A program made the position numbers and the translations under genes. DNA of 45,664 bases, taken from a virus. Under the pieces are notes generated by a model. The model made no database searches. It saw only the letters and a list, made by a program, of their open reading frames with translations, and was not told the origin of the DNA. Of this stretch, positions 1 to 45,664 are shown piece by piece. Where the stretch lies: positions 1 to 45,664 of the IMG/VR virus record IMGVR_UViG_3300043595_000022; one strand, 5' to 3'. Numbering within the stretch: the first letter of the stretch is position 1; the number at the start of each line of letters is the position of its first letter.

Positions 1-127
1 CCCCACTCCGCTCGACCCTCGGCGACTATTTCGAGCATGCGCCCGTGACGCTTCCAGGGGTTCAACGGTCGCCCCCCTCGGCGGGCTTCCGGGCGAGCCC
101 GCGCCTATGCTGCTCGGCCTGGGGGCA
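1..127. repeat. Terminal direct repeat, copy A (identical to 45538..45664)
   Basis: ccccactccgctcgaccctcggcgac...ctcggcctgggggca read at both ends, 127/127 identical by eye. Confidence 0.95.
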
Positions 128-476: not shown

Positions 477-733
477 CCTTCCGCCCTCGGGCCGCGGCCG
501 CCGGCGGCGTAGAAAGACATGCGGGCGATGTCGCGCGCAAACTCGTTTGCCTCGGCCGGCGAGATCCAAACCTCGCGCCCGGCGAGCACGATACCGACGG
601 CGCCCTCGGCGGCGTTCAACGAGTAGGCGAACCGGCCGAGCTGCCGCCGGAGTCGAGCGCGTACCGGTCTGGGCGAAAGCTCGGGCGCGGATTTCGAACG
701 CCGCCGGTCGCCCAGTGAGACGACCTTAGGCAC
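473..733 (-). CDS. Hypothetical 86-aa protein immediately downstream of int
   Basis: The GTG start at 733 overlaps the integrase stop (726-728) by 8 nt. High GC3 throughout. Confidence 0.5.
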   Translation of the reverse strand: MPKVVSLGDRRRSKSAPELSPRPVRARLRRQLGRFAYSLNAAEGAVGIVLAGREVWISPAEANEFARDIARMSFYAAGGRGPRAEG

Positions 734-2243
734 GGTTCGCCTCGACGGGACGGGCCGCTTGGTCGCCCTCTTGCACGAGGAGGCGCGCGAGCTCGAGCGC
801 CCGTGTCATCGCATCGGGCGTGTCGGCGAGCACCTTGCGGGCGAGGCGCACGGGCTCGCACGCGAGCACCTCGGAGGCGAGCGACTCGGCGAGCTCGGTG
901 CAGTCCTCGCCGGCGGCAGCGGCGGCTAACAGCCGGGCTGCAAGGTCCGATCCCACGGCGATCCCATTTGAGGGTCTAACCGCTGGTAATTGTTCAGGAT
1001 GGGGTGAGTAACGGGGATTGATTTCCTGTGCGCTCGAACTGTCCGTAATCACTGCCAAATCTGGAACGTGTGGGACGGGCATGGGACCGAGCGGCGACCA
1101 TGTCGTGCGGCTCGCCGAGCGCGCGAGGGCCTCGGGCGCGAGGTGCGCGTAACGCTCGGTTTCCTCGACCGAGGCGTGGCCGAGAAAGTCTCGCACCTCG
1201 TGCAGACGCCACGGCTCGCCCCACATTCCCGAGACGAGCGCCGAGCCCGCCGTGTGCCGAAGGTCGTGCGGCCGCACGTGACGAGTGATGCCGGCGGCCG
1301 TGAGGTGCTCGCCCCAATTGGGCCAGTGGCTGACCTTCTGATACCCGCCGCGCTGCGCAGGGAACACGAGGTCGAGCGGATTCCTGGGCGCCCACTCGTG
1401 TGCGATCTGGCGCCAGCGGGTAAGCGCGTCGCGCGCGATCGGCAGCAACGGGACCGTCCGGATCTTGCGACCCTTCGGCGCCCGAAGCTTGCCCTTAGTC
1501 CGCGCGCCGTAGCGCACCACAATGTGCGGCGCGTCGCCATCGAGGTGCACGTCGCGCCAGTGCAGGTACCAGGCCTCGCCGCCGCGCATGCCAGTTCCGA
1601 CGAGCGTGGCCAGCCACAGGCGGAAGCGTTCCGGGATCTTCTCGCACGAAAACAGGCGCGCCTGTTCGTCGAGCGTCAGGTACGTCCATGCCTCCTCGGT
1701 CGGCGCGTCGCGTTTCGGCACGCGCACGGTCTCGATCGGATTGACCTCGAGGATCTCAGCAGCGACGGCGCCGGCAACGATGCGGCGCAGCAGTGTGAGC
1801 AGCTGCCCGAGCCACGAGTCGGAGGTTTCCGGGTGCTTTTTGGAGAGCACGGCGAGCCATTTCTCGACGGCCTTGCGCGTCACGCGCTTGACTGGCCAGT
1901 CTATAAACGGCGCTTTGGTGAGCCAGTTATTCCACGCCGAGCGAGCGGTCGGCATGGCGATGTAACGGCCGTGCTCGCCGAGCTCGAGCTCGGTCATGTA
2001 GCGCTGGCCGTAGCCGCGGAGAGTCACGCCGCCGCCGGTCGGCAGCATGTTGCCCGCGGCGGCCTCTTGAATGGCTGCCGCGAGCACGCCCTCGGCGTCC
2101 TCGTAAGTCGGGTGCGTGCCGAGCTCGAGCCGCGAACCGTCGGCAAGAGGCAGCCGGGCGCGAAAGCTGCCCGAGGGTAGCGGCTCGATACTGCCCTCGC
2201 CGGGCTTCCGGCGCCGTGTGTCTTCTGTGGTGTTGGCGTTCAT
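726..2243 (-). CDS. int: Tyrosine site-specific integrase with about 130-aa C-terminal extension
   Basis: Catalytic signature GMRGGE...HDLRHTAGSALV...LGHASVEETERYAHL (R..HxxR..Y). 505 aa. Confidence 0.95.
   Translation of the reverse strand: MNANTTEDTRRRKPGEGSIEPLPSGSFRARLPLADGSRLELGTHPTYEDAEGVLAAAIQEAAAGNMLPTGGGVTLRGYGQRYMTELELGEHGRYIAMPTARSAWNNWLTKAPFIDWPVKRVTRKAVEKWLAVLSKKHPETSDSWLGQLLTLLRRIVAGAVAAEILEVNPIETVRVPKRDAPTEEAWTYLTLDEQARLFSCEKIPERFRLWLATLVGTGMRGGEAWYLHWRDVHLDGDAPHIVVRYGARTKGKLRAPKGRKIRTVPLLPIARDALTRWRQIAHEWAPRNPLDLVFPAQRGGYQKVSHWPNWGEHLTAAGITRHVRPHDLRHTAGSALVSGMWGEPWRLHEVRDFLGHASVEETERYAHLAPEALARSASRTTWSPLGPMPVPHVPDLAVITDSSSAQEINPRYSPHPEQLPAVRPSNGIAVGSDLAARLLAAAAAGEDCTELAESLASEVLACEPVRLARKVLADTPDAMTRALELARLLVQEGDQAARPVEANRA
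955..1075. other. AT-rich island inside the int 3-prime coding region; candidate attP core
   Basis: Run of low-GC3 codons (GTT CCA GAT TTG GCA GTG ATT ... GAA CAA TTA CCA GCG GTT AGA) inside an otherwise GC3-rich gene. Confidence 0.3.
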
Positions 2244-3033: not shown

Positions 3034-3049
3034 GTCTACATGTGTAGAC
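3034..3049. promoter_or_regulatory. Operator GTCTA-N6-TAGAC (switch region, site 1)
   Basis: GTCTACATGTGTAGAC, 7 nt from the repressor start codon. Confidence 0.65.
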
Positions 3050-3051
3050 CC

Positions 3052-3067
3052 GTCGATTGCCCTAGAC
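3052..3067. promoter_or_regulatory. Operator-like site with one mismatch (switch region, site 2)
   Basis: GTCGATTGCCCTAGAC; the left half is GTCGA instead of GTCTA. Confidence 0.4.
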
Positions 3068-3086
3068 AAGTAACAAAAATGCAACA

Positions 3087-3102
3087 GTCTAGACGGATAG
3101 AC
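3087..3102. promoter_or_regulatory. Operator GTCTA-N6-TAGAC (switch region, site 3)
   Basis: GTCTAGACGGATAGAC. An additional TAGAC half-site lies at 3155-3159, next to the ATG at 3160. Confidence 0.65.
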
Positions 3103-3159
3103 ATAGCGCGCAAAAACTATTCGTTTACAACACCACTCGTTGTGACGAGACTTGTAGAC

Positions 3160-3663
3160 ATGACGCTCGCTGAGCGCCTGGAATTTATCCTGAAGCAGAA
3201 CAATTGGAACGCGGGAGTCTGGGCCCGGCGTGCCAAGCTGCACAGGTCGCACGTGTACGGTCTGATAAAAGCTGCAAGGGAAGGTGACACCAAAAAGCTT
3301 GCCTACGAGACCGCTCGGAAGCTCGCTCGCGCCGCCGGCGTCTCCGTCGAATGGCTAGCGGAGGGCATCGGAACACCAGACGATGCATTCATCGAGCAAG
3401 ACGACGAAGACGAAGACGACGACGAGGACCCAGCGATCCAAGCGCTATCGCTCCCGAAACGGCGTGCGCGCGAGGCCGCGCTCGCGCTCGAGCTGCCCGG
3501 AAAGGCGATCGCTCACGGCCTGCGCGAGCCCGACGGCTACCCCAGCCACTACTATTTCAAGGCGATGGAGCTCGCGGCCGAGCGCTTGCGCGGCGGTTCC
3601 CGCGGGGAAACACCTGTCCCGCCGCCGCCGCCGCCGAGCAAAACCAACTTAGGCCGACCCTAG
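3160..3663 (+). CDS. HTH regulator (Cro/early-regulator candidate) with acidic linker and C-terminal domain, 167 aa
   Basis: Internal ATG at 3160. LKQNNWNAGVWARRAKLHRSHVYGLIK is HTH-like. Linker is EQDDEDEDDDEDP. Divergent from the CI-like gene. Confidence 0.65.
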   Translation: MTLAERLEFILKQNNWNAGVWARRAKLHRSHVYGLIKAAREGDTKKLAYETARKLARAAGVSVEWLAEGIGTPDDAFIEQDDEDEDDDEDPAIQALSLPKRRAREAALALELPGKAIAHGLREPDGYPSHYYFKAMELAAERLRGGSRGETPVPPPPPPSKTNLGRP

Positions 3664-3953: not shown

Positions 3954-4046
3954 TGCCGCGGGGCACCATGCCGGATTCCGTGAGGTGTGTCTAGCCGCCT
4001 CGACGCGCACCCTGTGCGTTTTTTGTGGACCCCTAAACTTTCGCTT

Positions 4047-4062
4047 GTCTATGCACGTAGAC
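4047..4062. promoter_or_regulatory. Operator GTCTA-N6-TAGAC (tandem pair, left)
   Basis: GTCTATGCACGTAGAC. Confidence 0.6.
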
Positions 4063-4063
4063 G

Positions 4064-4079
4064 GTCTATAGGTATAGAC
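4064..4079. promoter_or_regulatory. Operator GTCTA-N6-TAGAC (tandem pair, right)
   Basis: GTCTATAGGTATAGAC, 1 nt from the left site and 20 nt upstream of the ATG at 4099. Confidence 0.6.
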
Positions 4080-5811: not shown

Positions 5812-6850
5812 AGACAAGCCCGCAACCCGCGAACGCACGCCGCTCTTTGTCGGCCTGATTGGCCCGAGCGGCAGCGGCAAAACCTTTTCCGCGCTGCGCC
5901 TAGCGAGCGGGTTTCAACGCGTGTCGGGCGGCGACGTCTTTTTCGTCGACACGGAAGCACGCCGCGCACTGCACTACGCCGACCGGTTCAAGTTCAGGCA
6001 CGTGCCGTTCGGGCGCCCATTCGGGCCGCTCGACTACCTCGCCGCCGTCGAGCATTGCGTGCGCAAGGGCGCCGGCACGATCATTGTCGATTCGATGTCG
6101 CACGAGCACGAGGGGCCCGGCGGCGTCCTCGAAATGCACGCGCAGGAAACGAAACGACTCGCGAGCGCATGGCGCACGAGCGAGGACAAAGCCAAGTTTT
6201 CGGCATGGAACAAGCCGAAGACCGAGCGGCGGCGCTTGATCACCACGCTCACGCAAGAGGCGTGCAACTTCATCCTTTGCTTTCGTGCCAAGCCAAAGAT
6301 CAAACCGGTGCGCGACGAAGACCCGCTCGAGCTCGGCCTCATGCCCATCGCCGGCGAAGAGTACGTGTATGAAATGACCGTGAAGTTTCTTTTGTACCCG
6401 GGCTCGCAGGGCATACCGACGCTCGAGTCGGACTATCCGGGCGAACGCACCATGATCAAGATCCCGGAACAATTCCGGGACTACCTCTATCAGAGTCGCG
6501 GCCGGAACCTTTCCGAGGACGCCGGCGAATACCTCGGGCGCTGGGCGGCAGGCACGGCGGCACCACCCAAAGTGACGGCGGCCGAGTTGCTCGCGAGCTA
6601 CGAAGCCTGCAGCGAGCCGGCGACGTATCGCACGCTCGAAGAGCAGCGGCGCGCCAACTGGTCGGCGTTCAAGAAAGAGGAAAAGGCGCAGCTCAAAGAG
6701 GCCGCCGAGCTCGCGACGAAGCGCATGGCCGAGGGCGACACGACGCCGCCCGAGCGCACGAGCGACGAGAGCGCAGCGGGCGAGCAGGCCGCCCAGGGCG
6801 AGGGCGCGGCAGCAGCAGGCGAGGGCGCAGCGACCGAGGGGCAGCAGTAG
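5795..6850 (+). CDS. Sak4-like RecA-fold ATPase (AAA_24-type) with low-complexity C-terminal tail
   Basis: Walker A GLIGPSGSGKTF and Walker B TIIVDS. Typical partner of a phage PD-(D/E)XK nuclease. Confidence 0.7.
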   Translation: MARTFEDKPATRERTPLFVGLIGPSGSGKTFSALRLASGFQRVSGGDVFFVDTEARRALHYADRFKFRHVPFGRPFGPLDYLAAVEHCVRKGAGTIIVDSMSHEHEGPGGVLEMHAQETKRLASAWRTSEDKAKFSAWNKPKTERRRLITTLTQEACNFILCFRAKPKIKPVRDEDPLELGLMPIAGEEYVYEMTVKFLLYPGSQGIPTLESDYPGERTMIKIPEQFRDYLYQSRGRNLSEDAGEYLGRWAAGTAAPPKVTAAELLASYEACSEPATYRTLEEQRRANWSAFKKEEKAQLKEAAELATKRMAEGDTTPPERTSDESAAGEQAAQGEGAAAAGEGAATEGQQ

Positions 6851-10824: not shown

Positions 10825-11847
10825 TCACGCTTTGGTGTCCTCGTCGAGGGCGCTGCGCCAAGCGTCGCGACCGACGATCCCGTCGCCGCGAAAGCCATGC
10901 GCCTGCTGCCAAGCGACCGTTGCGCGGTGCGTGATCGGCCCGAAAATACCGTCGTCTTTCACGCCAACGACCCGTTGCCATCGGGCAACGTTGGCGCCCT
11001 TTGCCCCGATCCCGAGCGACTCGGCGGGCACCGCCTGCCGCCCGCCCTTCTCCTCGAGCAGCGCGAGTTGATTGCGAACGATCTGCAAGTAGACCCCCCA
11101 GGGAAAGGCCGGCCCGGGATCCCAGTGCTTCGACTTCTTGTATGCTTGGTTGACGTCGTGATGGCCGCAGATACCGGCGGCGCCGACGAGCACCTCGCTT
11201 GCCGTGAGCTGCCGCACGGGAATGCGCCAGCGGTCGCAGATACCGGCGACGAGGACGGCCGAGCGGGCAAGCAGCGTTCGCGAGTAGGCGTCTTGCCAGT
11301 CGCCCGCGAGCTGCTTTGCACGACCGGCGTGCTCGACGCCAATCGACACGCCGTTGACGCCCGGCGCGTGACCCGCGACGTCGCGCTCGAGCACGCTCTG
11401 CGTGATCGAATCCGCGTCGACGGCGTAGTGCCATGACGCTTCGGGCGCGTCCGGCCCTGCCACCCAGGCGGCGAGGTTTTCGGCGGCTCGGTTCGTCTCG
11501 TCGCATTCGGCAGTGTGAATCACGACGAGCCGCACGGCGCGCCCTTGACCGGGCTTGAAGAGACGCGCCGGGATAAACGGCACGTCTTCGAGGTCGCCGC
11601 GCACGCTCGTTTGGCGCGCCGCCGGAGTCACGGACGGCGGCAGCACGAGCGGGCCGTCGGGCGCATACAGCGTCACGCCCTTGTGCTCGCCCTTCTCCTT
11701 GCTCTTGTGCGGCTCGAGCCGCGCTTCGTACGCGCGACCGTCGAGCTCGAACGGAATGCGCGCGCCCATCGGCGGATTCGTTTTCAGGATCGCGCTCGCC
11801 TTTGCAATCAGGGCGGGCGTCAATTCGTTGTTTCCCATTCGGCGCAT
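10825..11847 (-). CDS. Endolysin: N-acetylmuramoyl-L-alanine amidase (Amidase_2/PGRP type) with C-terminal PG_binding_1 domain
   Basis: VVIHTAECDE...GHHDVN...KHWDPGPAFPW. C-terminal ARWQRVVGVKDDGIFGPITHRATVAWQQAHGFRGDGIVG. ATG at 11847 or 11838. Confidence 0.85.
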   Translation of the reverse strand: MRRMGNNELTPALIAKASAILKTNPPMGARIPFELDGRAYEARLEPHKSKEKGEHKGVTLYAPDGPLVLPPSVTPAARQTSVRGDLEDVPFIPARLFKPGQGRAVRLVVIHTAECDETNRAAENLAAWVAGPDAPEASWHYAVDADSITQSVLERDVAGHAPGVNGVSIGVEHAGRAKQLAGDWQDAYSRTLLARSAVLVAGICDRWRIPVRQLTASEVLVGAAGICGHHDVNQAYKKSKHWDPGPAFPWGVYLQIVRNQLALLEEKGGRQAVPAESLGIGAKGANVARWQRVVGVKDDGIFGPITHRATVAWQQAHGFRGDGIVGRDAWRSALDEDTKA

Positions 11848-11851
11848 GGAT

Positions 11852-12055
11852 TCACCTATCGTCCCATGGGTGCCGCCTGACGCCGAGCTCGCGCACGACC
11901 GGCAGCTTTGAATCACGCTCGGGCGGTTCGTCGCCCATGAACGCGAGCGCGAATTCGCGGCGTAGCTCGCGCCGATCGCGCGGCTCTAAGAGGCTCATAA
12001 TGTAGTGCACGAGCGAGCGCGCCGCCTCTTTGGACAGATCGCCACCCTCGAGCAC
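11852..12055 (-). CDS. Hypothetical 67-aa protein
   Basis: GGAGG (12063-12067), a 7-nt spacer, then GTG at 12055. Same frame as track ORF 11852..12103. Confidence 0.45.
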   Translation of the reverse strand: MLEGGDLSKEAARSLVHYIMSLLEPRDRRELRREFALAFMGDEPPERDSKLPVVRELGVRRHPWDDR

Positions 12056-32088: not shown

Positions 32089-33504
32089 TTAGTTTGCTTG
32101 GTCGGTCGGGTCGGGGTTGCGCCGACTGCGCGCACGGATGTCGGCCCGCGTCTTCGCGTACTTCGCCGGATCGACGCCCTTCGCCTTGCACATGGCGAGC
32201 TCGTCGTCGGTAAGATCGGCGACGTCGCCGCCCTTGGGATCGCCGCGTGGCGGCTTGGGCGGCGGCGGCGGCTCGCCTTTCGCCGCCTTGAGTTTCGCGA
32301 CGCGGTCGCGCAAGCCGTCGATCGGTTCGTTCGCCAGGCGTGCGACGGGCTCGGTTCCCTTCTCGTCGCCCCATGCCGTCGCCGGGATCTCGACGCCGAG
32401 TTTCACGAGGTCGCCGACCAGGCCGCGGCGCTCCTTGCCCTCGAGCTTTGCTTGCTCCTCGGCGAGCTGCTCGGCGCGCTCCTCGGAATTGAGGTGCGAC
32501 TTTTTGAACGTCTCCAGCTGCGACAGAGCCGCGTTCAGTGACCGCTTACCCGTCTCGCGCATGAGGCGCACCGCGGCAGCTTCGACGCTACCGACAGTCT
32601 CGCCCTCGAGCGCGGGATCGGCGGGCAGGTCGGTCGGCTCGGCGCCGGCGGCCGAGGCGATCAAGCCTTTGAGGATCTCGAGCGCCTTGTTGGTATCGCC
32701 CGACTCGATCGCGTCGAGTGCATCCTTGATCAATTTGGAATTCACAGGGCCTCCATTGACGGACAGGCGAGCCGTCCTCGACTTGTTTTGCGCGACCGCG
32801 ATCGGCGCGTAGGAACGTTTCACCGCGACGGGCGCGCCGAGTTTCGCGGTCGCGCCGTTGAACGTGTACGGGATCTCGAAAAGCTTGCCGTCGTGCTCGT
32901 ACACGGCCGACGCTTCGAACACGTCGACGAGGTACGGGCCGAGCATGCAAGGCGCGTCGGGCGTCGGCGCGGGATAGAGCTCGGCAATCGCAGCGGCGAG
33001 CGCGCGTTGCGTGTCGTTGAGCGAGTCACCCGTCGAAAGCTTCGCGCCGAGGAAAGCGCTCGCCGCGGCGACAAGGTGCTCGAGCCCATGCGTCGCAGGG
33101 ATTGCGGTCAGCGCGATATTCATGACGCGCGTCGGGCGTCGTTTCTTGTCGTAGAGAAAGACAGGCGAAATGTAGCGTTGCGTTTTCGCGCGCAGGCGGC
33201 GCGCACCGTCGTCGGTCCATGTGACGTTGACCGCCCACAATTCGCCGTCGCGCAGCTCGAGCTTTGCCCACCCGCGCGCGTCGGGATCGTAGTTCGGGTT
33301 TGTGTCGTCGATCGACAAGTGCTCGAGGTCGATCATTCGATCGGCCTTGTGCGCCCCGTAGTGCGCCATCACGGCGCGTGCGGCCTCCTCGTCGAAGAGA
33401 TACCGCCCGTTATCCGTTTCGTTCCACCCCACCCGGAAGATGCGAAATTCGCTCGGCGGCTCGTCACCCTCCAGGGCGACGGCGAGCACGGCGAGCGCGG
33501 GCAT
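32089..33504 (-). CDS. Prohead protease/scaffold fusion, Mu gpI-like
   Basis: MIDLEHLS...ARGWAKLELRDGELWAVNVTWTDDGARRLRAKTQRYISPVF...NIALTAIPA matches the Mu-like protease pattern. C-terminal half is coiled-coil and Pro-rich. Start may be ATG 33504, GTG 33513 or TTG 33519. Confidence 0.75.
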   Translation of the reverse strand: MPALAVLAVALEGDEPPSEFRIFRVGWNETDNGRYLFDEEAARAVMAHYGAHKADRMIDLEHLSIDDTNPNYDPDARGWAKLELRDGELWAVNVTWTDDGARRLRAKTQRYISPVFLYDKKRRPTRVMNIALTAIPATHGLEHLVAAASAFLGAKLSTGDSLNDTQRALAAAIAELYPAPTPDAPCMLGPYLVDVFEASAVYEHDGKLFEIPYTFNGATAKLGAPVAVKRSYAPIAVAQNKSRTARLSVNGGPVNSKLIKDALDAIESGDTNKALEILKGLIASAAGAEPTDLPADPALEGETVGSVEAAAVRLMRETGKRSLNAALSQLETFKKSHLNSEERAEQLAEEQAKLEGKERRGLVGDLVKLGVEIPATAWGDEKGTEPVARLANEPIDGLRDRVAKLKAAKGEPPPPPKPPRGDPKGGDVADLTDDELAMCKAKGVDPAKYAKTRADIRARSRRNPDPTDQAN

Positions 33505-33605
33505 TCGGAGCACATGCAAAACCTGTCATGCGAAACACTGCAAAAGCCAGGCTCGGCGGTCGCGCTTTTTTCTAATCCCCTCGTACCCTGGTAACCTCGT
33601 ACCTC

Positions 33606-33809
33606 ATGCACACCAGAACACCGTTAGGTCGGTTGAACGAAGCCGAGGCAGCGAAAGCGCGTCAAATGGTGACGGAACACGGGGCGAAAGAGGCCGCCAA
33701 GAGGCTTGGTCTATGCAACGAGCGGACGTTGCGAAAGGCGGCGCTCGGCGAACCCGTGCACCCGCTCACGCTCTCCACTCTTCGCGCGAAGCTGCCCGAC
33801 ACGCTTTGA
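33606..33809 (+). CDS. Small HTH DNA-binding protein, 67 aa
   Basis: EHGAKEAAKRLGLCNERTLRKAALGE is HTH-like. Lower G+C than the surroundings. Directly upstream of the portal gene on the same strand. Confidence 0.5.
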   Translation: MHTRTPLGRLNEAEAAKARQMVTEHGAKEAAKRLGLCNERTLRKAALGEPVHPLTLSTLRAKLPDTL

Positions 33810-33827
33810 CCGTGGCACATTCGCAGC

Positions 33828-35393
33828 ATGGGCCGACGCTCGCGACGCGCACGCAAGACACGTCAAGGCAGCGAGTTTGACCTCGCGCAATTGATCGGGC
33901 GGCTCGAGCCGCCGAAGCAACCGCAGACCGCGTACGGCTGGAGTCTTGACGCCATTCGCGCTGCGCGCGACTTGCAACTCGCCGGCAAGTTTTCTGAGCC
34001 CGTCAAGCTCGCTAAGGCGATGCGAACGGACTACGCACTTTTTACCGCGTACCAAAACCGCCTCGCGCCGCAACGCTGTATCGGCGTCGAGCTCGTGCCG
34101 CCGAGCGAGAGCGAGCAAGCCAAGCGCGTCGCCGGCGAAGCCGAGGCGCTCTTCGGCGAGCGCGGCGTCGCGATCACGACCGAGGGCATCAGCTCTATCA
34201 ACGGCACGCTCGCAAACCACTGCATCGCAGTTGGCGCCGTCGCGCACACGCCGCGCGCCGACGGCTCGCGCGTCGATCTGGAAATGCGTTCATGGCCGCT
34301 CGAGTTTTGCGAGTGGAGCCCGAACGACCGTTGCCTCGTAACGCGGGTGCACGGGAGCAACGTGCGCGTGCCGATCATTCACGGCGACGGTCGATGGGTC
34401 GTGTTTCAAAAGCATGAAGAAGAGCCTTGGACGCAAGAGCCTTGCGTGCTTCCGGGCGGACTGCTTTGGGCGTCGCATGCGTTCGGGTTGCGTGATTGGA
34501 GCCAGGGATCAAAGTCGCACGGTCTCTCGCGCGTGATCGGCGAGATGCCCGCCGGCGTGCCGCTGCAAAACGCCGACGGGCAATTGAGCGCCGAGGCGGC
34601 AGCGTTCGTGCAACTCTTGCTGTCGCTCTATCAAGGCGACCTGCCCGTCGGCGTGCAACCGAGCGGAGCGAAAACGCAGTTTGTAACCAACAACTCGACC
34701 GCTTGGCAGGTGTGGGAACAACTCATTTTGATGGGCGACAAAGCGGCCGCTCGAATCTACCTGGGCACCGACGGCATGCTCGGGAGCCAGGGCGGCGCGC
34801 CGGGCGTCGATATCGCCACGCTCTTCGGCGTCGCCACGACGATCGTGCAGGGCGACCTGTCGGCGATCGAACGCGCCATTTTGACCGGTGTGATCGAGCC
34901 ATGGGCCGCGATCAATTTCGGCGACTCGACGCTCGCGCCGTATCGGCGCTATCTCATGCCCGACGCCGACGCCGACGCCGAGCGCGAGAGTTTCGCGAAA
35001 CGGCTCAATGCATTCCACGCCGCGGTCGAGCAGCTGCGCAAGAATGGTTTCGAGGTCGCCCAGGAAAGCGTGAACGCGTTGGCCCAAAAATTCGCGGTGC
35101 CGGCGCCGACGCTGCCGGACGAAAGCAAACGCGCACCATCGATCACGCTCGCGCCGACGGATATCGCCCGCGTCGTCAAGGTCAACGAGGCGCGCGCCTC
35201 GGCTGGCCTGCCCGCGCTCACGCTCGCCAGCGGCCAGGACGATCCCGACGGGCAGCTTACCGTCGAGGAATTCGCCGCGAAGAAAGCCGCGGCCGTGAAA
35301 ACCGCCGAGCAGCAGCACGCTTCGCCGCCGTCGACGCCACCCACACCGCCCCCGAACGGCGCCCCCAAGCCCGCGCCGGCGCTCCCCTCGTAG
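33828..35393 (+). CDS. Portal protein (DUF935 / Mu gp29-like), encoded on the strand opposite to all other morphogenesis genes
   Basis: 521 aa and the only portal-sized candidate. Divergent neighbour of the Mu-type protease. Pro-rich C-terminal tail. Confidence 0.6.
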   Translation: MGRRSRRARKTRQGSEFDLAQLIGRLEPPKQPQTAYGWSLDAIRAARDLQLAGKFSEPVKLAKAMRTDYALFTAYQNRLAPQRCIGVELVPPSESEQAKRVAGEAEALFGERGVAITTEGISSINGTLANHCIAVGAVAHTPRADGSRVDLEMRSWPLEFCEWSPNDRCLVTRVHGSNVRVPIIHGDGRWVVFQKHEEEPWTQEPCVLPGGLLWASHAFGLRDWSQGSKSHGLSRVIGEMPAGVPLQNADGQLSAEAAAFVQLLLSLYQGDLPVGVQPSGAKTQFVTNNSTAWQVWEQLILMGDKAAARIYLGTDGMLGSQGGAPGVDIATLFGVATTIVQGDLSAIERAILTGVIEPWAAINFGDSTLAPYRRYLMPDADADAERESFAKRLNAFHAAVEQLRKNGFEVAQESVNALAQKFAVPAPTLPDESKRAPSITLAPTDIARVVKVNEARASAGLPALTLASGQDDPDGQLTVEEFAAKKAAAVKTAEQQHASPPSTPPTPPPNGAPKPAPALPS

Positions 35394-35421
35394 CCGCTGC
35401 AAGATTCAATTCTTGCAGCGG
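35394..35421 (+). terminator. Perfect 11-bp stem-loop immediately after the portal stop
   Basis: ccgctgcaaga ttcaat tcttgcagcgg. No U-tract. Confidence 0.45.
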
Positions 35422-35543
35422 GCGCACGCTCGGCCCGCCGGGCGCACGGCGTAACAAAGCCATTGTTACGGCTTTGTTCTGCCCCGCCGCCCGCAAGCCC
35501 GCGATGTCTAGACGCAGCCGACGTGGCACGCCGGGCGCATTAC

Positions 35544-35559
35544 GTCTAGACTTATAGAC
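35544..35559. promoter_or_regulatory. Operator GTCTA-N6-TAGAC upstream of the lipoprotein moron
   Basis: GTCTAGACTTATAGAC, followed by AGGAGGGG RBS and ATG at 35577. A GTCTAGAC palindrome also occurs at 35506-35513. Confidence 0.55.
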
Positions 35560-35576
35560 AGGAGGGGTTCGCACAA

Positions 35577-36233
35577 ATGCGCCCTTGGATCATGATCGCG
35601 AGTTTCTGTTGTTCTCTGATTGCTTGCTCGGGCGCCGACGGCGGCGACTCGCCGCACGAGCCCGGGCCCGACGCGGGCGATGCGGGCGAGCTCGAGGCCG
35701 ACGCCGCCGGCGGGCGGGCAGGCGAGGGGGGCACGGGCGGAGGCGCCGGCACGGCCGCTCACGGCGGCTCGGCGGGCACGAGCTCGGGCGGCATGGCCGG
35801 CACGTCGGGCGGCTCGAGCGGCAGCGCTGGACGGGCGGGCACGGGCGGCAGCGCGGGTGCCGCGGGCAGCTCGGGCAGCGCCGGCACGGCGGGCAAGGGC
35901 GGCTCGGCCGGCACGGGCGGCAGCGGCAGCGGCGGCGGCGGCGCGGCGACGTGCCCGAGCACGTGCTCGTACCTAAGCTTTCCGGCGACGAAAAGCTCCC
36001 CGCCGGCGACGACCTCGGGCACCGCGGAGGTGCGCGCCGTGTGCCCGGCGGGCAGCACGATCGAGCCGGGCCCGGCCTATTGCTTCAACTGCGATCCGGG
36101 CACCGCGCAGCGGCTCCCTAACGGGATCGTGCGCTGCTTTCCAATGCCGGCCGCGCCGGCGGGCTCGGTATGCACGATTCAGTTTAGGTGCGTGACCGAG
36201 CGCTTCTGCGTCGAATGGAATGCGCCATGCTGA
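35577..36233 (+). CDS. Lipoprotein with Gly/Ser/Ala-rich repeat region and Cys-rich C-terminal domain (moron)
   Basis: Signal peptide plus lipobox MRPWIMIASFCCSLIAC|SG. GGSAGT-type repeats. 10 Cys in the last 90 aa. Confidence 0.75.
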   Translation: MRPWIMIASFCCSLIACSGADGGDSPHEPGPDAGDAGELEADAAGGRAGEGGTGGGAGTAAHGGSAGTSSGGMAGTSGGSSGSAGRAGTGGSAGAAGSSGSAGTAGKGGSAGTGGSGSGGGGAATCPSTCSYLSFPATKSSPPATTSGTAEVRAVCPAGSTIEPGPAYCFNCDPGTAQRLPNGIVRCFPMPAAPAGSVCTIQFRCVTERFCVEWNAPC

Positions 36234-36621
36234 GAGACCGTTTGGTATTTGCTGCGCTCGTCCTGGGCGCGCTGCTCGCGTGCAAGAGGAAGGCGCCGAC
36301 GCCGACGCCGGTCGAAACGGCCCTGTCTCCGACGGCCGTGCTCGCAATGGCGGCGGACGCCGGAAGCTTCGAAGGGGCCGAGGTCCGCGTGACGGGCAAG
36401 GTGCTCGCCTTGCGTCCAGGCGGCGAAGCTGTGCCGCCGTTCGTCGACCTCGAGGCGGCGGACGGCGCGAAGCTCTGCCCGCGGGCATGCGTCACTACTC
36501 ATGTTTGCGAGGCACGTGCTTCAAGGAGCCGCCGCCGGTCGGTTCGCTGGCGACGCTCAAGTGCACCGGCTCTTTCCTACTCGAGCGCCCGCTGCTCATG
36601 CAGTGCGAGCAGGTGAAATAA
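36227..36621 (+). pseudogene. Second lipoprotein gene, apparently frameshifted near 36470-36510
   Basis: MLRDRLVFAALVLGALLAC|KRK has a lipobox. High GC3 follows the 36227 frame up to about 36490, then switches to the frame that ends at TAA 36619-36621 (..CFKEPPPVGSLATLKCTGSFLLERPLLMQCEQVK). Confidence 0.5.
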
Positions 36622-36624
36622 ACT

Positions 36625-36668
36625 CGAGGCGCCCGCGGGCCGAACAACAAAAACCCGCGGGCGCCTCG
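36625..36668. terminator. Bidirectional terminator between the moron and terL
   Basis: Perfect 15-bp stem cgaggcgcccgcggg / cccgcgggcgcctcg with a 14-nt loop. On the minus strand it is followed by AGUUUAUUU. Confidence 0.7.
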
Positions 36669-36714
36669 GGCCGCTCCTACTCATACGGGCGAGTTTCCAA
36701 GGCCCAGGCCCGGA

Positions 36715-38259
36715 CTATAACAGGTCGCGTCGCGTACCGCGTAGCAGCGCCGCGATCGCGTTGTCGCCCGCCCGCGGCGGCATGGGATCGACCTCGCCAG
36801 AGCGCGGCCTGGGCGGCGCCGCTGGCGCGAGCTGCTCGGCCATTTTCTCGATACCCTTGAACGCTGCGCGCGCGTCGGGCGGCTTCGTGAAAAAGCCTTC
36901 AAGCTCCCATACGCCGTGCACGAGGGCGTCGAGCCGGTTCGGCGACTCGACGCCAGGCTCGGCGACGAACGTTGTCATTTCGTCCTCGAGCTCGCCGAGC
37001 TCGGCGCCGAGGACATGCGACCCGCGGCCGGCTTCCCAAACCGTGGCGGCGGGCTCGGCGCGCGAAAACTTGCTCGTGCGCCCGACAATCTCTTTCACAT
37101 AGATGGTGCTCGGCGAGTGCCGCGTCGTGGCCTTGAGGTCGAGCACCTCGACGCTGATCCCGCGTGTCAACGCGCGCGCACGCAAGAGGGCAACGACCAG
37201 GTCGCCGCCGCGATTGCGCTCGACGACGACGCAATCGCACTTGCCGGCGAGGTAGCGGTCGATCACGAGCTCGCCCCACACTTCCGGCGCGTGCCGATCG
37301 GTCAAGTCGGCGAACACAAGGATCTGATTGTCGATGCCCTGGCCGAGCTCGACGATGCCCGTCGGGTCGGTGCCTTCGCGCCCGCTGATTGCCGGATCGA
37401 CGGCGATGATCCGCCGCTTCAATTGCGTGGGCGCGTGCCGGCGATGGTCGTCGATCCATACTTGCTTCCACGCTGCGCCCTCGGCCTCGTCGAGAAAGAT
37501 GCCGCGTAGCTCCTCGTCGCCCGCTTGCGTGCCGCCGATAGCTTTCTCGATCGAATCGACGAACCCCTCGCCGAGGTTGTCTTCGTTTTCGCGTATCTCG
37601 CCGCGCACGACAATGTGCTCGTCGGGCGAGGCCGCGGCGCGCTGCAAGTTGCTGCGCAGGATCGGGTGCCGTCGGCGCGAGGTGCAGTCCCAAACCGTTT
37701 TCGCGTACCCGAGCGAGCACATGATTTCCAAGTTTCGCCACGCCTCGAGCCTCGTCGCGTGCGGCCACGATTGCAGCTCGGTCGGCCAAGCGAGGTGCAC
37801 GCCGGGCCCGCGAATGTTGCCGGGTTTCTCCGGCGTGAAAACGAAAGCCTGTGCGCCATTGGGCCAAAGCACGCGGCCCTTTTCGAACGACGGCTTGAAC
37901 CATGGCGGCGCGCAGGCGATCAAGCCGCTATCGCCCTCGACCTGCACCTCGAGCGCCTTGTCTTCATTCTGTGCAATCAACGCGATCCGCATGGCGCGGC
38001 CCGCCTCGGCCTCGCGATTGACAAACTCGGCGACCGCTCGAGTTTTGCCGAAACGGCGGCCGCACAGGAAACCCCACGATCGCCAGCGGCCCGCCGGTAT
38101 GATTTGCGACGGGCGCGCCCACGTCCGATCCCAGTCGTGCGAAAGCGCAGCGAGCTCGAGCGGCGTGAGCTCGTCGAGCCAGGCGGCGGCATACTCTACG
38201 GCGAGCTCGGGCGGCAGGTCGGCGAGCGCGTCGCAGATCGTTTCGACGAGCGCGGTCAA
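36715..38259 (-). CDS. terL: Terminase large subunit
   Basis: Walker A GFLCGRRFGKT. C-terminal nuclease-like IIAVDPA...VVVERNRGG. 514 aa. The TTG start is TTGA-coupled to the upstream gene. Confidence 0.85.
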   Translation of the reverse strand: MTALVETICDALADLPPELAVEYAAAWLDELTPLELAALSHDWDRTWARPSQIIPAGRWRSWGFLCGRRFGKTRAVAEFVNREAEAGRAMRIALIAQNEDKALEVQVEGDSGLIACAPPWFKPSFEKGRVLWPNGAQAFVFTPEKPGNIRGPGVHLAWPTELQSWPHATRLEAWRNLEIMCSLGYAKTVWDCTSRRRHPILRSNLQRAAASPDEHIVVRGEIRENEDNLGEGFVDSIEKAIGGTQAGDEELRGIFLDEAEGAAWKQVWIDDHRRHAPTQLKRRIIAVDPAISGREGTDPTGIVELGQGIDNQILVFADLTDRHAPEVWGELVIDRYLAGKCDCVVVERNRGGDLVVALLRARALTRGISVEVLDLKATTRHSPSTIYVKEIVGRTSKFSRAEPAATVWEAGRGSHVLGAELGELEDEMTTFVAEPGVESPNRLDALVHGVWELEGFFTKPPDARAAFKGIEKMAEQLAPAAPPRPRSGEVDPMPPRAGDNAIAALLRGTRRDLL

Positions 38260-38480
38260 GTGCGGCGCCGTTGCTCAAGGTATTCTAACGCGTCCACGCC
38301 GCGGCCCGCATCCGCGTCGTCGAGCGCACGCTCGAGTGACGAATGCAGCGCGGCACGTTCGTCGGGCGTGAGCTCGTCGCCTACGATGATAAGCACCGTG
38401 ACCTCGGCGCCGTCGGGTAAGTCGGTCGGTTCGTCAATCGTGACGCGACCATTTTTTACTTGCGCTTTCACGGTGTGCAT
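38256..38480 (-). CDS. Antitoxin-like small protein (AbrB/SpoVT-like N-terminus plus addiction-module-component-like C-terminus)
   Basis: ATG at 38480. MHTVKAQVKNGRVTIDEPTDLPDGAEVTVLI followed by LTPDERAALHSSLERALDDADAGRGVDALEYLE. 74 aa. Confidence 0.5.
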   Translation of the reverse strand: MHTVKAQVKNGRVTIDEPTDLPDGAEVTVLIIVGDELTPDERAALHSSLERALDDADAGRGVDALEYLEQRRRT

Positions 38481-38490
38481 TGTGGCTTGT

Positions 38491-38928
38491 CTAGACGTCG
38501 CGACGAGCGCGGTCAATTGGCGGGCTTGCCTTTCGCGCGTTCCGGCTCGAGCTGCTCGACCATTTGCTGCTGTGGACGACGTCGTGGCCGTCGATCTCGA
38601 CGACGAGCGCCGCGTGCTCGAGTAGCAACGCGAAGTCGGCTCGCGCTCCGCACGGCAACGCAAACTGCGCGCGTAGTAGCGTTTCGAGACCGCACGGAAA
38701 GGTGAGTCGCACGGCGCCGCCCGCGCGCGGCGAATGACCGCTCGCCTCCATCAGCAATGCTGTCACAAAGAGGCGCTCCATGGGAGACTCGCAACGCGCG
38801 ATCAAGCGCGTAATGAAACCGGGTTCGCCCGGCAATAGCATGAGCCGATCGAGGATCGCGGCGGCCGCGGCAGTTTCGATCTGCAGACTCCACGCAAGCC
38901 ACGTTTCGGCGAGCAATGCGCGCATCAC
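38491..38928 (-). CDS. Restriction-endonuclease-fold (DUF559/Vsr-like) protein, possibly C-terminally disrupted
   Basis: CGARADFALLLEHAALVVEIDGHDV resembles the D...ExDG core of DUF559-type nucleases. The tail SSKWSSSSSRNARKAS looks off-frame. GTGA/ATG coupled to the terS-like gene. Confidence 0.4.
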   Translation of the reverse strand: MMRALLAETWLAWSLQIETAAAAAILDRLMLLPGEPGFITRLIARCESPMERLFVTALLMEASGHSPRAGGAVRLTFPCGLETLLRAQFALPCGARADFALLLEHAALVVEIDGHDVVHSSKWSSSSSRNARKASPPIDRARRDV

Positions 38929-39395
38929 GCCGCGTGTCCCTTCGCTGCGCGTCGCACGCGCTCGAGTATTTTCTCGCGAGCTCGCCGCGCAGCTTCGATC
39001 ACGTCGGGCGAATCGTTTTCGTCCGGCGCCGGCGGCGGAATGAGTCGCGACAGCTCTTTGATCGCCGAGCTCGCGACGCGCGCGAATTGCAAATAGACGT
39101 GTGGGTCCTGCCGCTTGCGTGCTTCGTCGGCGAGGTCAGTGATCGTTGCGATGATCTTGCCGAGCTGCGCGCGCAGATCGTCGCGCGAGGTCGGCGTCGC
39201 GGTGCGCACGGGCGGCGGCTTGCTGCTCGAGCTCGTCTTGCTCGAGCGCGGCGGCGCCGGCGCGGGTTGCTTCAACGCGTTCGAGACCGTCGGCTGACTG
39301 ATTCCAAGCGAGCGCGCGATCTCCGTTTGATTCAAACCACGTCGGCGAGCGGCGTGAATTCTCGCGAGCATTTGGCCATTGAGCTTGCGTGTCAT
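38925..39395 (-). CDS. HTH protein, terminase small subunit candidate
   Basis: ATG at 39395. RRRGLNQTEIARSLGISQPTVSNAL is an HTH, followed by a Ser/Pro linker and a helical C-terminal domain. First gene of the packaging operon. Confidence 0.5.
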   Translation of the reverse strand: MTRKLNGQMLARIHAARRRGLNQTEIARSLGISQPTVSNALKQPAPAPPRSSKTSSSSKPPPVRTATPTSRDDLRAQLGKIIATITDLADEARKRQDPHVYLQFARVASSAIKELSRLIPPPAPDENDSPDVIEAARRAREKILERVRRAAKGHAA

Positions 39396-39429
39396 GCGAT
39401 CGCAAAGCTCCTCGAAACCACATGAAACC

Positions 39430-39733
39430 ACCGCGCGTAACTATCGAATAATAGGCTATTTTCTATAAATTCCGCGCGAGAGGAGCCCCTCCAAGCCGAC
39501 CCCGGGGGCCCGTAACCCCCTCTTTTCGCGGGCTTTTTGCGTGGTCTTTTTCGGCTGCTTTTGCCCTGTTTTTGATGTGCGGCCAGCATGTGGCCGCGAA
39601 GCCAATGTAGGGGAGGGTTCCGCAGCCGTTTTAGGCTGGATGGGCTTTGATCCTGGGAAGCGCCGCGCGTTTGCGGGCCATCCCCCGCGGGTGTGGCTAC
39701 CCTGTGGATAACTCTCGCGAGGAGACACACACG
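39430..39733. promoter_or_regulatory. 304-bp divergent non-coding region: AT-rich patch plus phased T-tracts
   Basis: ctatcgaataataggctattttctataaatt at 39441-39471. T4-5 tracts start at 39523, 39534, 39547, 39559 and 39569 (spacing 10-13 nt). Hairpin gcggcca-gcatg-tggccgc. Confidence 0.5.
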
Positions 39734-45346: not shown

Positions 45347-45602
45347 GGCGAGCCTCCTGCCGGCGTTCAAGGCGCGCGAGCGTCTCCTCGAGGGCGTCGT
45401 GTACGTGCAACGGCTTTGCCGCCGTGAGCCACAGATCGCCGTTGCCGCGCGAATAGTCCTCGAGCACGCAGTCGGTGACGCCCGGAAACTCAGCGTGCAG
45501 GCGCCGGCGAATTCGCATTGCGGCGATCTCGCCGGCGCCCCACTCCGCTCGACCCTCGGCGACTATTTCGAGCATGCGCCCGTGACGCTTCCAGGGGTTC
45601 AA
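45339..45602 (-). CDS. Hypothetical 87-aa protein spanning the repeat/junction
   Basis: The TTG start at 45602 (equivalent to position 65) forms a TTGA overlap with the stop of ORF 62..301. High GC3. Confidence 0.55.
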   Translation of the reverse strand: MNPWKRHGRMLEIVAEGRAEWGAGEIAAMRIRRRLHAEFPGVTDCVLEDYSRGNGDLWLTAAKPLHVHDALEETLARLERRQEARRG

Positions 45603-45664
45603 CGGTCGCCCCCCTCGGCGGGCTTCCGGGCGAGCCCGCGCCTATGCTGCTCGGCCTGGGGGCA
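45538..45664. repeat. Terminal direct repeat, copy B (identical to 1..127)
   Basis: Same 127-nt string as 1..127. Reading frames are continuous across the implied junction. Confidence 0.95.

Follow-up and report, generated by a model that had tools for sequence, protein, structure and literature searches.

The subject of this analysis is a 45,664-nt stretch of viral DNA, the whole of IMG/VR record IMGVR_UViG_3300043595_000022 (the window, or phage A, considered here beside two relatives, phages B and C), and in particular the 183-nt spacer between its portal gene and a pair of lipoprotein genes. We favour, as moderately probable, a reading in which this spacer controls a lipoprotein cassette gained by horizontal transfer, and in which the phage's own regulators would act at a predicted operator of the same kind as those in its immunity region. 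This operator lies directly against the ribosome-binding site of the first lipoprotein gene. It is found in the same place in phage C, and in phage B a different palindrome is shared by the cargo and the immunity region.

An immunity-type operator at the cargo gene

The motif GTCTA-N6-TAGAC occurs without mismatch at 6 sites in the window, where 100 dinucleotide shuffles gave 0.00. They stand at 2724, 3034, 3087, 4047 and 4064 in the immunity region and at 35544 at the cargo, and only 2724 and 35544 fall outside the two immunity clusters. Degenerate copies carry one mismatch (3052, 3989) or two (3144, 38489), and 10/10 sites with at most two mismatches fall at gene boundaries. These counts bear out the proposal of an earlier note on this DNA that the cargo carries the same operator as the immunity region, and each of the other elements that it had listed in the spacer can likewise be read from the sequence where it had placed them. 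The features around the cargo site are as follows.

35506-35513, strandless: stand-alone GTCTAGAC palindrome with two overlapping half-sites; function uncertain
35544-35559, strandless: immunity-type operator GTCTAGACTTATAGAC, a perfect palindrome, 14/16 identical to operator 3087
35560-35566, plus strand: Shine-Dalgarno (SD) sequence AGGAGGG, 11 nt before the ATG at 35577; kept in contigs L036 and L048
35577-36233, plus strand: lipoprotein gene 1, 218 amino acids (aa); its product has a signal peptide (lipobox LIAC), a linker rich in Gly/Ser/Ala/Thr and a C-terminal domain rich in Cys
36227-36621, plus strand: lipoprotein gene 2, with lipobox LLAC; its ATG overlaps the stop of gene 1 (ATGCTGA)

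The operator reads GTCTAGACTTATAGACA and is followed directly by AGGAGG (35560-35565). Its left part, 35544-35551, is itself a copy of GTCTAGAC that had previously been missed; this octamer occurs in 4 copies in the window against 0.22 expected. The copy at 35506, to which attention had been drawn before, is indeed a palindrome, but it is not conserved in phage C. As in CI/Cro-type systems, the GTCTA-N6-TAGAC sites are inverted repeats with conserved half-sites and a free spacer, are present in several copies at divergent regulator genes, and have a sequence that follows the sequence of the regulators across phages A, B and C. By these features the site at 35544 is assigned to the phage's own CI/Cro-type operator set, and it is very probably functional, that is, a predicted regulator-binding site.

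The immunity region and its two regulators

The layout of the immunity region is a mirror image of that of lambda.

2724-2739: isolated perfect operator, upstream of genes in the xis/int direction; the Cro-analogue gene stops 4 nt before it, and the next start codon follows ~30 nt on
3027 to 2746, minus strand: 94-aa XRE-type helix-turn-helix (HTH) protein (Pfam HTH_31/HTH_3, phrog_2328), Cro analogue by position
3034-3159, between the divergent HTH genes: OR-like operator cluster, with sites at 3034 (perfect), 3052 (1 mismatch), 3087 (perfect) and 3144 (2 mismatches)
3160-3663, plus strand: 167-aa XRE-type HTH protein (phrog_2328), CI analogue by position, between the OR-like and OL-like clusters
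3989-4079, upstream of the rightward early operon (ATG 4099): OL-like operator cluster, with 3989 (1 mismatch) and the perfect tandem 4047/4064, separated by a 1-nt gap

The roles of CI analogue (167 aa) and Cro analogue (94 aa) are inferred from position; a homologue search with the 94-aa protein returned the query itself and nothing else. The 94-aa gene opens a long leftward operon that runs through a xis-like gene and int, then over the contig junction to replication genes and the terminase, while the rightward early operon encodes a PDDEXK nuclease and an AAA_24 ATPase. An operator-like site adjoins the start codon of each regulator gene, as site 3144 does the ATG at 3160, which suggests leaderless transcripts for both. 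At 2724, the isolated operator may serve as a roadblock, or as a secondary point of control, for xis/int and all genes downstream.

In lambda, the OR and OL operators are bound by CI and Cro, and cI lies between them. The region described here resembles that arrangement in its palindromic sites with conserved 5-bp half-sites, clustered between divergent HTH genes and before a second early operon; in the longer HTH gene placed between both clusters, as cI is between OR and OL; and in an operator placed directly at the CI-analogue start codon, an arrangement that fits a leaderless transcript of PRM type. It differs from lambda in that the HTH proteins have no detectable kinship to CI or Cro beyond the XRE fold, with no S24 peptidase domain found in them, and in its two extra isolated sites, one after the Cro-analogue gene and one at the late-region cargo.

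The cargo operator changes together with the immunity operator

Phage C is represented by the contig that carries the closest homologue of lipoprotein 1, L036, extended as L054; the extension was reached by exact look-up of a neighbouring protein, an integrase search having failed to recover the phage C integrase. Compared with the window, phage C is 70% identical in terL, 63% in DnaB, 63.5% in the Cro analogue (here a 95-aa protein), 70.5% in the HTH domain of the CI analogue and 39% in the lipoprotein. Its immunity region has GTCTA-N6-TAGAC in the layout of the window, at L054 6158, 6175 and 7149 together with degenerate sites: 6158/6175, with 1 nt between them, form a tandem ahead of the early operon that matches 4047/4064, and one site adjoins the start codon of each regulator gene. 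The single perfect site in the 12.5 kb of L036 is GTCTATACTCGTAGAC at 1823, followed directly by the GGGAGG of the orthologous lipoprotein gene. Between the two cargo operators the half-sites are intact and 3/6 spacer positions have changed, as expected for a protein-binding site. The gene upstream of the cargo is a different one in phage C, and a set of repeated heptamers (described below), a TGGC...GCA element, the operator and the SD stay with the lipoprotein gene, which suggests that the block from heptamers to SD is a self-contained control region.

Phage B was assembled as two contigs, L044 and L048. We treat these as one phage: two samples contain both contigs, their synteny with the window is complementary, and each breaks off in adapter sequence at the same point of the genome. 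Its regulators are 28-32% identical to those of the window, and GTCTA-N6-TAGAC is absent from it. In its place is the palindrome ATAC-N4-GTAT, with 3 copies at positionally equivalent immunity sites (L044 7598, 7613 and 8423) and 2 copies between the portal and the cargo (L048 8204 and 8280), the latter being a five-gene operon that includes homologues of both lipoproteins. The expectation for this palindrome is 0.01 per contig, and there is none in the window or in L036. Since cargo and immunity region in phage B share this different palindrome, the cargo operator changes together with the immunity operator. This link between cargo operator and immunity type makes it very likely that the phage's own regulators use the site; such co-variation is the strongest support obtainable, short of experiments, for this predicted use.

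In both the window and phage C, an open reading frame (ORF) of 17-18 codons (MSRRSRRGTPGALRLDL, window 35504-35557; MRFAPLADGVPLALRLYS, L036 1780-1836) ends in the TAG of the operator right half, 2 nt before the SD. Neither copy has an SD of its own, and the ORF is probably a by-product of conserved DNA or of chance.

The motif also occurs beyond these phages. Unrelated GC-rich viral contigs carry GTCTA-N6-TAGAC arrays, one at L034 8145-8290 (at least 5 copies before a gene, with one further isolated copy at 1357, 7 kb from the array) and another at L023 5475-5514, so that operators of the GTCTA/TAGAC half-site type appear to recur among phages. A tandem-operator pattern retrieved 30 contigs of all GC contents from IMG/VR; we rejected them as relatives because none encodes relatives of the window proteins, and several really carry a longer GTCTAGG..CCTAGAC palindrome. 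A DNA pattern that joined promoter and operator had no match in GTDB genomes or in IMG/VR. CTGCAAG was considered as a second shared motif and rejected, being common throughout these genomes. In L050, a 1-kb contig with another homologue of lipoprotein 1 (P0130), several ATGCAT palindromes lie upstream of the gene (1-344) and may represent a third operator type.

The cassette is an insertion between portal and terminase

33828-35393, plus strand: portal gene (Portal_Mu; Pfam PF06074, E = 4e-15), with stop TAG at 35391-35393
36715-38259, minus strand: terminase large subunit (Pfam PF03237), convergent with the cassette and 70% identical to the terL of L036

In L002, L003 and L005, viral contigs with portals 44-52% identical to that of the window, portal and terL converge or overlap with no gene between them. 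The window has ~1.3 kb there, with two overlapping genes. Because the two genes adjoin in these relatives, the segment 35394-36714 is, on this comparison, an insertion at a conserved portal/terminase junction, in agreement with its earlier description as a moron; the same junction holds variable cargo in L048 and L036. In 35501-36000 the GC content reaches 0.754, while the flanks have 0.65-0.69; a Gly/Ala-rich repeat accounts for part of the difference.

By pattern check only, the lipobox of lipoprotein 1 reads MRPWIMIASFCCSLIAC followed by S and that of lipoprotein 2 ...GALLAC followed by K. Both fit [LVI][ASTVI][GAS]C, and the homologues retain the lipobox. Homologues of lipoprotein 1 are only 4 among billions of proteins (P0001, 39% identical, and P0126, P0129 and P0130), and the cargo proteins have no match in Pfam, PHROG, NCBIfam or PADLOC. 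An AlphaFold model of lipoprotein 1 had a predicted local distance difference test (pLDDT) score of 41 and was not used. Relative to its intact 130-aa homologue in L048 (9498-9890), lipoprotein 2 shifts frame near 36470, just past ...EAADGAKL. The evidence is a frame switch in third-position GC content (GC3), a tblastx match split over two frames and the intact L048 translation; the shift is either a 2-nt insertion or a 1-nt deletion, and reflects either a pseudogene or an assembly error.

The portal gene lies on the strand opposite to the protease and terminase, a family trait seen likewise in L002, L003, L005 and L048. A 67-aa HTH-like ORF precedes it (window 33606-33809, plus strand), with counterparts at L048 6395-6598 and upstream of the portal in L004; together, this ORF and the portal form a small plus-strand island within an otherwise minus-strand late region.

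Promoter candidates in the spacer

35524-35539, plus strand: TGGCACGCCGGGCGCA, a candidate sigma-54 -24/-12 element (GG-N10-GC), or a -35 region for a TAGACT -10 hexamer at 35547-35552

We infer that a promoter lies within 35500-35560 and that the cassette is an autonomous unit. The phage C counterpart of the element at 35524 is TGGCGTGCCGCTTGCA, at equal distance from the operator. As sigma-54-like sequences the two read TGGCACG-N4-GCGCA in the window and TGGCGTG-N4-TTGCA in phage C, each a 10/12 match (35524 and L036 1803), the latter being the lone such site in that locus. A TAnnnT hexamer within the operator (TAGACT in the window, TATACT in phage C) has the same spacing in both and is not above chance.

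We regard as speculative, and on balance unlikely, a fuller version in which a sigma-54-type promoter drives the cassette, with the three-heptamer array ~85 bp upstream acting as an enhancer-like element and the phage operator lying over the start site. If true, it would explain why the heptamer array is kept at 29/31 positions yet inverted between the two phages, and the cargo would integrate a host enhancer-binding-protein signal with the lysis/lysogeny state. No Sigma54_activat domain was found among the window proteins scanned. A literature search gave no phage example of cargo control that integrates an enhancer with lysogeny in this way, and we know of no phage with such a control logic.

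A further element of this kind, CCGTGGCA(C/T)-N7-GCATGG, overlaps the portal start codon (window 33810-33830) and recurs in L005 at ~5935-5955; it fits the sigma-54 GG-N10-GC spacing but puts the start site inside the portal gene. The second perfect TGGCAC-N7-GCA of the window, at 33813 within this stretch, was rejected as a promoter on the grounds that transcription would start past the portal ATG.

Hairpins and a heptamer element

35394-35421, plus strand: 11-bp perfect hairpin CCGCTGCAAGA/ttcaat/TCTTGCAGCGG, directly after the portal stop
35432-35499, plus strand: imperfect inverted repeat of 68 nt with 30-nt arms, part of the minimum-free-energy fold; its tip holds both alternative hairpins
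35451-35480: heptamer element GTAACAA, 5 nt, TTGTTAC, 4 nt, TTGTTCT; successive starts are separated by 12 and 11 bp
36623-36670: 17-bp GC-rich hairpin (-39.7 kcal/mol, z = -6.5), followed by a U-rich tail on the minus strand (terminase transcript) only

The window has 14 perfect hairpins of at least 9 bp, and 3/14 lie at the borders of the 1.3-kb cassette. The perfect hairpin after the portal stop, which had been called a terminator, is strong (-22 kcal/mol, z = -5.65, with 0/200 shuffles folding as well), but it is not a canonical intrinsic terminator: GCGCACGC comes next, with no U tract, it was unlisted by the terminator scan, and neither L036 nor L048 has it. Probably it marks the 3' end of the portal transcript or insulates that transcript, and does so in this phage only. 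A similar correction applies at the other border, where the hairpin previously described as a strong terminator of the cassette is real but has its U-rich tail on the terminase strand; it is absent in phage C, where the stops lie just 6 nt apart.

The spacer as a whole is structured (z = -4.05), and the prefix to 35500 folds at -36.2 kcal/mol. Both pairings that had been proposed as mutually exclusive hairpins are present, GTAACAA (35451-57) with TTGTTAC (35463-69) and AACAAAGCC (35453-61) with GGCTTTGTT (35470-78). The short hairpin has -8.0 kcal/mol and the long one -11.8, or -14.7 with outer pairs, so that the long form makes up 73-79% of the ensemble. In phage C the heptamer element is conserved at 29/31 positions and inverted (blastn, L036 1739-1769 against window 35478-35448, 93.5%, minus), which puts the T-rich tail on the wrong strand for termination and makes the shared arm the 3' one. 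This inversion counts against an attenuator. What had been taken for a switch is better described as three heptamer repeats with one dominant fold and an outer shared arm, and the element could be an orientation-free hairpin or a protein-binding, enhancer-like array. It is a feature outside the immunity regions, with no heptamer copy in that of L054 and a single window copy there, at 3070. Pairing of the SD with an upstream CCCUC is predicted in the read-through RNA of phages A and C, and short transcripts pair the SD too.

The 19-mer GTAACAAAGCCATTGTTAC had 0 matches in IMG/VR and 7 in metagenomes, about the chance number and none related. An Rfam search of 33000-39500 at E <= 1 gave two chance-level matches and no family match for 35440-35480. 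In an unrelated metagenome contig, L041 (8960-9080, GC 0.535), tandem GTAACA-N7-TGTTAC dyads lie 22 bp apart and one is identical to the window 19-mer; there, where it is tandemly repeated, the GTAACA dyad may be a protein-binding site.

A proposed mechanism and its alternatives

In the arrangement that we favour, the CI analogue, the Cro analogue or both would bind the operator at 35544. Because the operator ends at 35559 and the SD starts at 35560, any transcript that uses this SD must begin within or upstream of the operator, and a bound dimer would occlude a proximal promoter or start site, or act as a roadblock. From this geometry the logic at the operator must be negative only, with an activator geometry excluded; the earlier note had guessed at negative logic for the case that CI binds, and the abutment of operator and SD points the same way. 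The cassette would thus be wired as an early lytic gene, off under the lysogenic repressor and on after infection or induction, with the Cro analogue possibly turning it down again, while the hairpins at 35394-35421 and 35432-35499 would probably insulate it from the portal transcript. The predicted direction of regulation, silence in the lysogen and expression with the early genes, is the same under promoter occlusion and under a roadblock.

Several points weigh against this reading. The binder, whether the 167-aa or the 94-aa HTH protein, and the binding itself are predicted from sequence. The co-variation is drawn from three phages, and the phage B motif was defined after the sequences were seen. 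The phage B operators do not adjoin the SD but stand 53-140 nt ahead of it, so the mechanism there may differ, and no operator could be recognised in L051, which carries a more distant homologue of the lipoprotein. The promoter is also in question: sigma-54-like sites in the window (2 observed against 3.9 expected) are no better than chance in GC-rich DNA, and a sigma-70 consensus scan of 33000-39000 found none anywhere in the 6 kb, which makes it little informative.

The lack of a convincing promoter leads to an alternative in which the cassette has no promoter of its own, is reached by read-through from the operon of the small HTH-like ORF and the portal, and is silenced by an operator that stops elongation, as stoperators do, with site 2724 acting likewise. 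The upstream hairpins have no U tracts and may not terminate, a roadblock would be natural at site 2724, 4 nt past a stop codon inside an operon, and stoperators are documented (PMC9283540, PMC6550527). We nevertheless consider this unlikely, since the cargo site is palindromic and stoperators are asymmetric and orientation-dependent, since the control block in phage C moves with the lipoprotein gene behind a different upstream gene, which suggests a self-contained region, and since the late portal operon should already be silent in a lysogen, leaving little to block. A positive or neutral role, with the repressor recruited to activate the cassette in lysogens or the site serving as a looping partner of the immunity region with no local effect, is improbable on several counts. 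A start that includes the SD can lie no more than ~8 nt downstream of the operator centre (35551.5), which is incompatible with class I or II activation; on the 45.5-kb circle, ~13 kb separate the site from the nearest immunity operator; and the position against the SD is kept in phage C. Such a role would have precedents, classical morons being expressed in lysogens and lambda CI both activating PRM and forming OL-OR loops.

Control at the RNA level, with the alternative hairpins at 35451-35478 as an attenuator of portal read-through into the cargo, seems very improbable. Both pairings exist in an unusually structured spacer, and the short hairpin precedes a T-rich tail and was listed by the terminator scan; yet the long hairpin dominates and the short one reaches only -8 kcal/mol, the segment that they share is the 5' arm and not the middle, which is the wrong topology for a terminator/antiterminator pair, and the element has no Rfam match and is inverted in phage C. 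Least credible of all is that the motif at 35544 is a relic or an accident that came with recombined DNA and is unused. It is a lone site, and the GTCTAGAC copy at 35506 is not conserved, but fewer than 0.02 perfect sites are expected in the window (0.013 by a composition estimate), the site is kept in phage C despite 39% protein identity, and phage B has a different palindrome that again matches its immunity region.

Relation to known systems

Morons, as described by Hendrix and Juhala in HK97/HK022-type phages, are genes that lie between conserved neighbours and have their own promoter and terminator, and they are usually seen as prophage-expressed, host-serving genes amid general repression. 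Our cassette resembles them in its insertion between genes that are adjacent in relatives, its differing base composition, the hairpins at both borders and its accessory lipoprotein cargo. It differs in that the phage immunity operator stands against the SD, which predicts silence and not expression in the lysogen, and in that its promoter is represented by candidates only. Thus, the cargo is most likely switched by the regulators of lysis and lysogeny and not freely expressed.

Operator control of such cargo had been called unexpected, which is overstated, as there are known cases of repressor sites beyond the immunity region, stoperators among them (PMC9283540). In cluster A mycobacteriophages (L5 gp71 type), these are 13-bp asymmetric sites, bound by a monomer and orientation-dependent, with ~20-30 per genome (PMC9283540, PMC6550527). 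The cargo operator is similar in being a predicted repressor site outside the immunity region, in a short intergenic space just upstream of a gene, that would silence non-immunity genes in the lysogen; it differs from a stoperator in being palindromic and one of only one or two such sites. In the erp lipoprotein operons of Borrelia cp32 prophages, an operator 5' of the gene is bound by prophage-encoded BpaB (PMC2938228). The parallel lies in prophage-borne lipoprotein genes with a 5' operator and a phage-encoded binding protein, here predicted, whereas BpaB is ParB-like, the operators differ and there is no link to a CI/Cro-type switch. A possible functional analogy is with Llp of phage T5. 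This lipoprotein is made in lytic infection and blocks the receptor, so that lipoprotein expression is again tied to lytic growth; it has no sequence similarity to the cargo described here.

If our reading holds, the cargo cassette is coupled directly to the immunity switch, in a sense opposite to the classical expectation for morons. That this tie would have been maintained through a change of operator specificity implies selection for repressor control of the lipoproteins, and points to accessory genes that act in lytic growth or right after infection, possibly in receptor masking or envelope modification. It also suggests a comparative test for such cargo elsewhere, namely whether the cargo operator tracks the immunity operator. 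More broadly, a phage lineage that is uncultured and probably myxobacterial now has a defined operator/regulator pair and a described genome architecture.

The phage genome and its other features

726-2243, minus strand: tyrosine integrase
10828-11916: amidase

The terminal 127 bases of the contig are identical (window 1-127 = 45538-45664), and the contig is circularly closed. With this 127-bp terminal overlap it is the complete genome, of ~45.5 kb, of a temperate phage; its GC content is 66%. The head module is Mu-like by Pfam, with portal PF06074, protease/scaffold PF10123 and a T4-type terminase. Cultured phages are remote, the best INPHARED terminase match being 36% identical; a terminase protein search of IMG/VR and a portal protein search of GTDB genomes gave no match. 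Homologues of the integrase include one from a Polyangium metagenome-assembled genome, which hints, weakly, at a myxobacterial host.

Both phage B contigs, L044 and L048, stop in Illumina adapter at the equivalent of window 39430-39490, a position marked in the window by AT-rich TAACTATCGAATAATAGGCTATTTTCTATAAATT upstream of the terS-like gene. This suggests that the physical genome ends (cos/pac) lie at that AT-rich stretch. Between the terS-like gene and terL (window 38259-38928) is a 74-aa ORF with a weak match to a RelN antitoxin (E = 0.0025). The GTCTAGAC copy at 38489, which is the operator with two mismatches, overlaps the stop of a 145-aa ORF and lies 8 nt ahead of the ATG of the 74-aa ORF. 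Phage C has a different gene in this segment, which looks like a second variable cargo slot.

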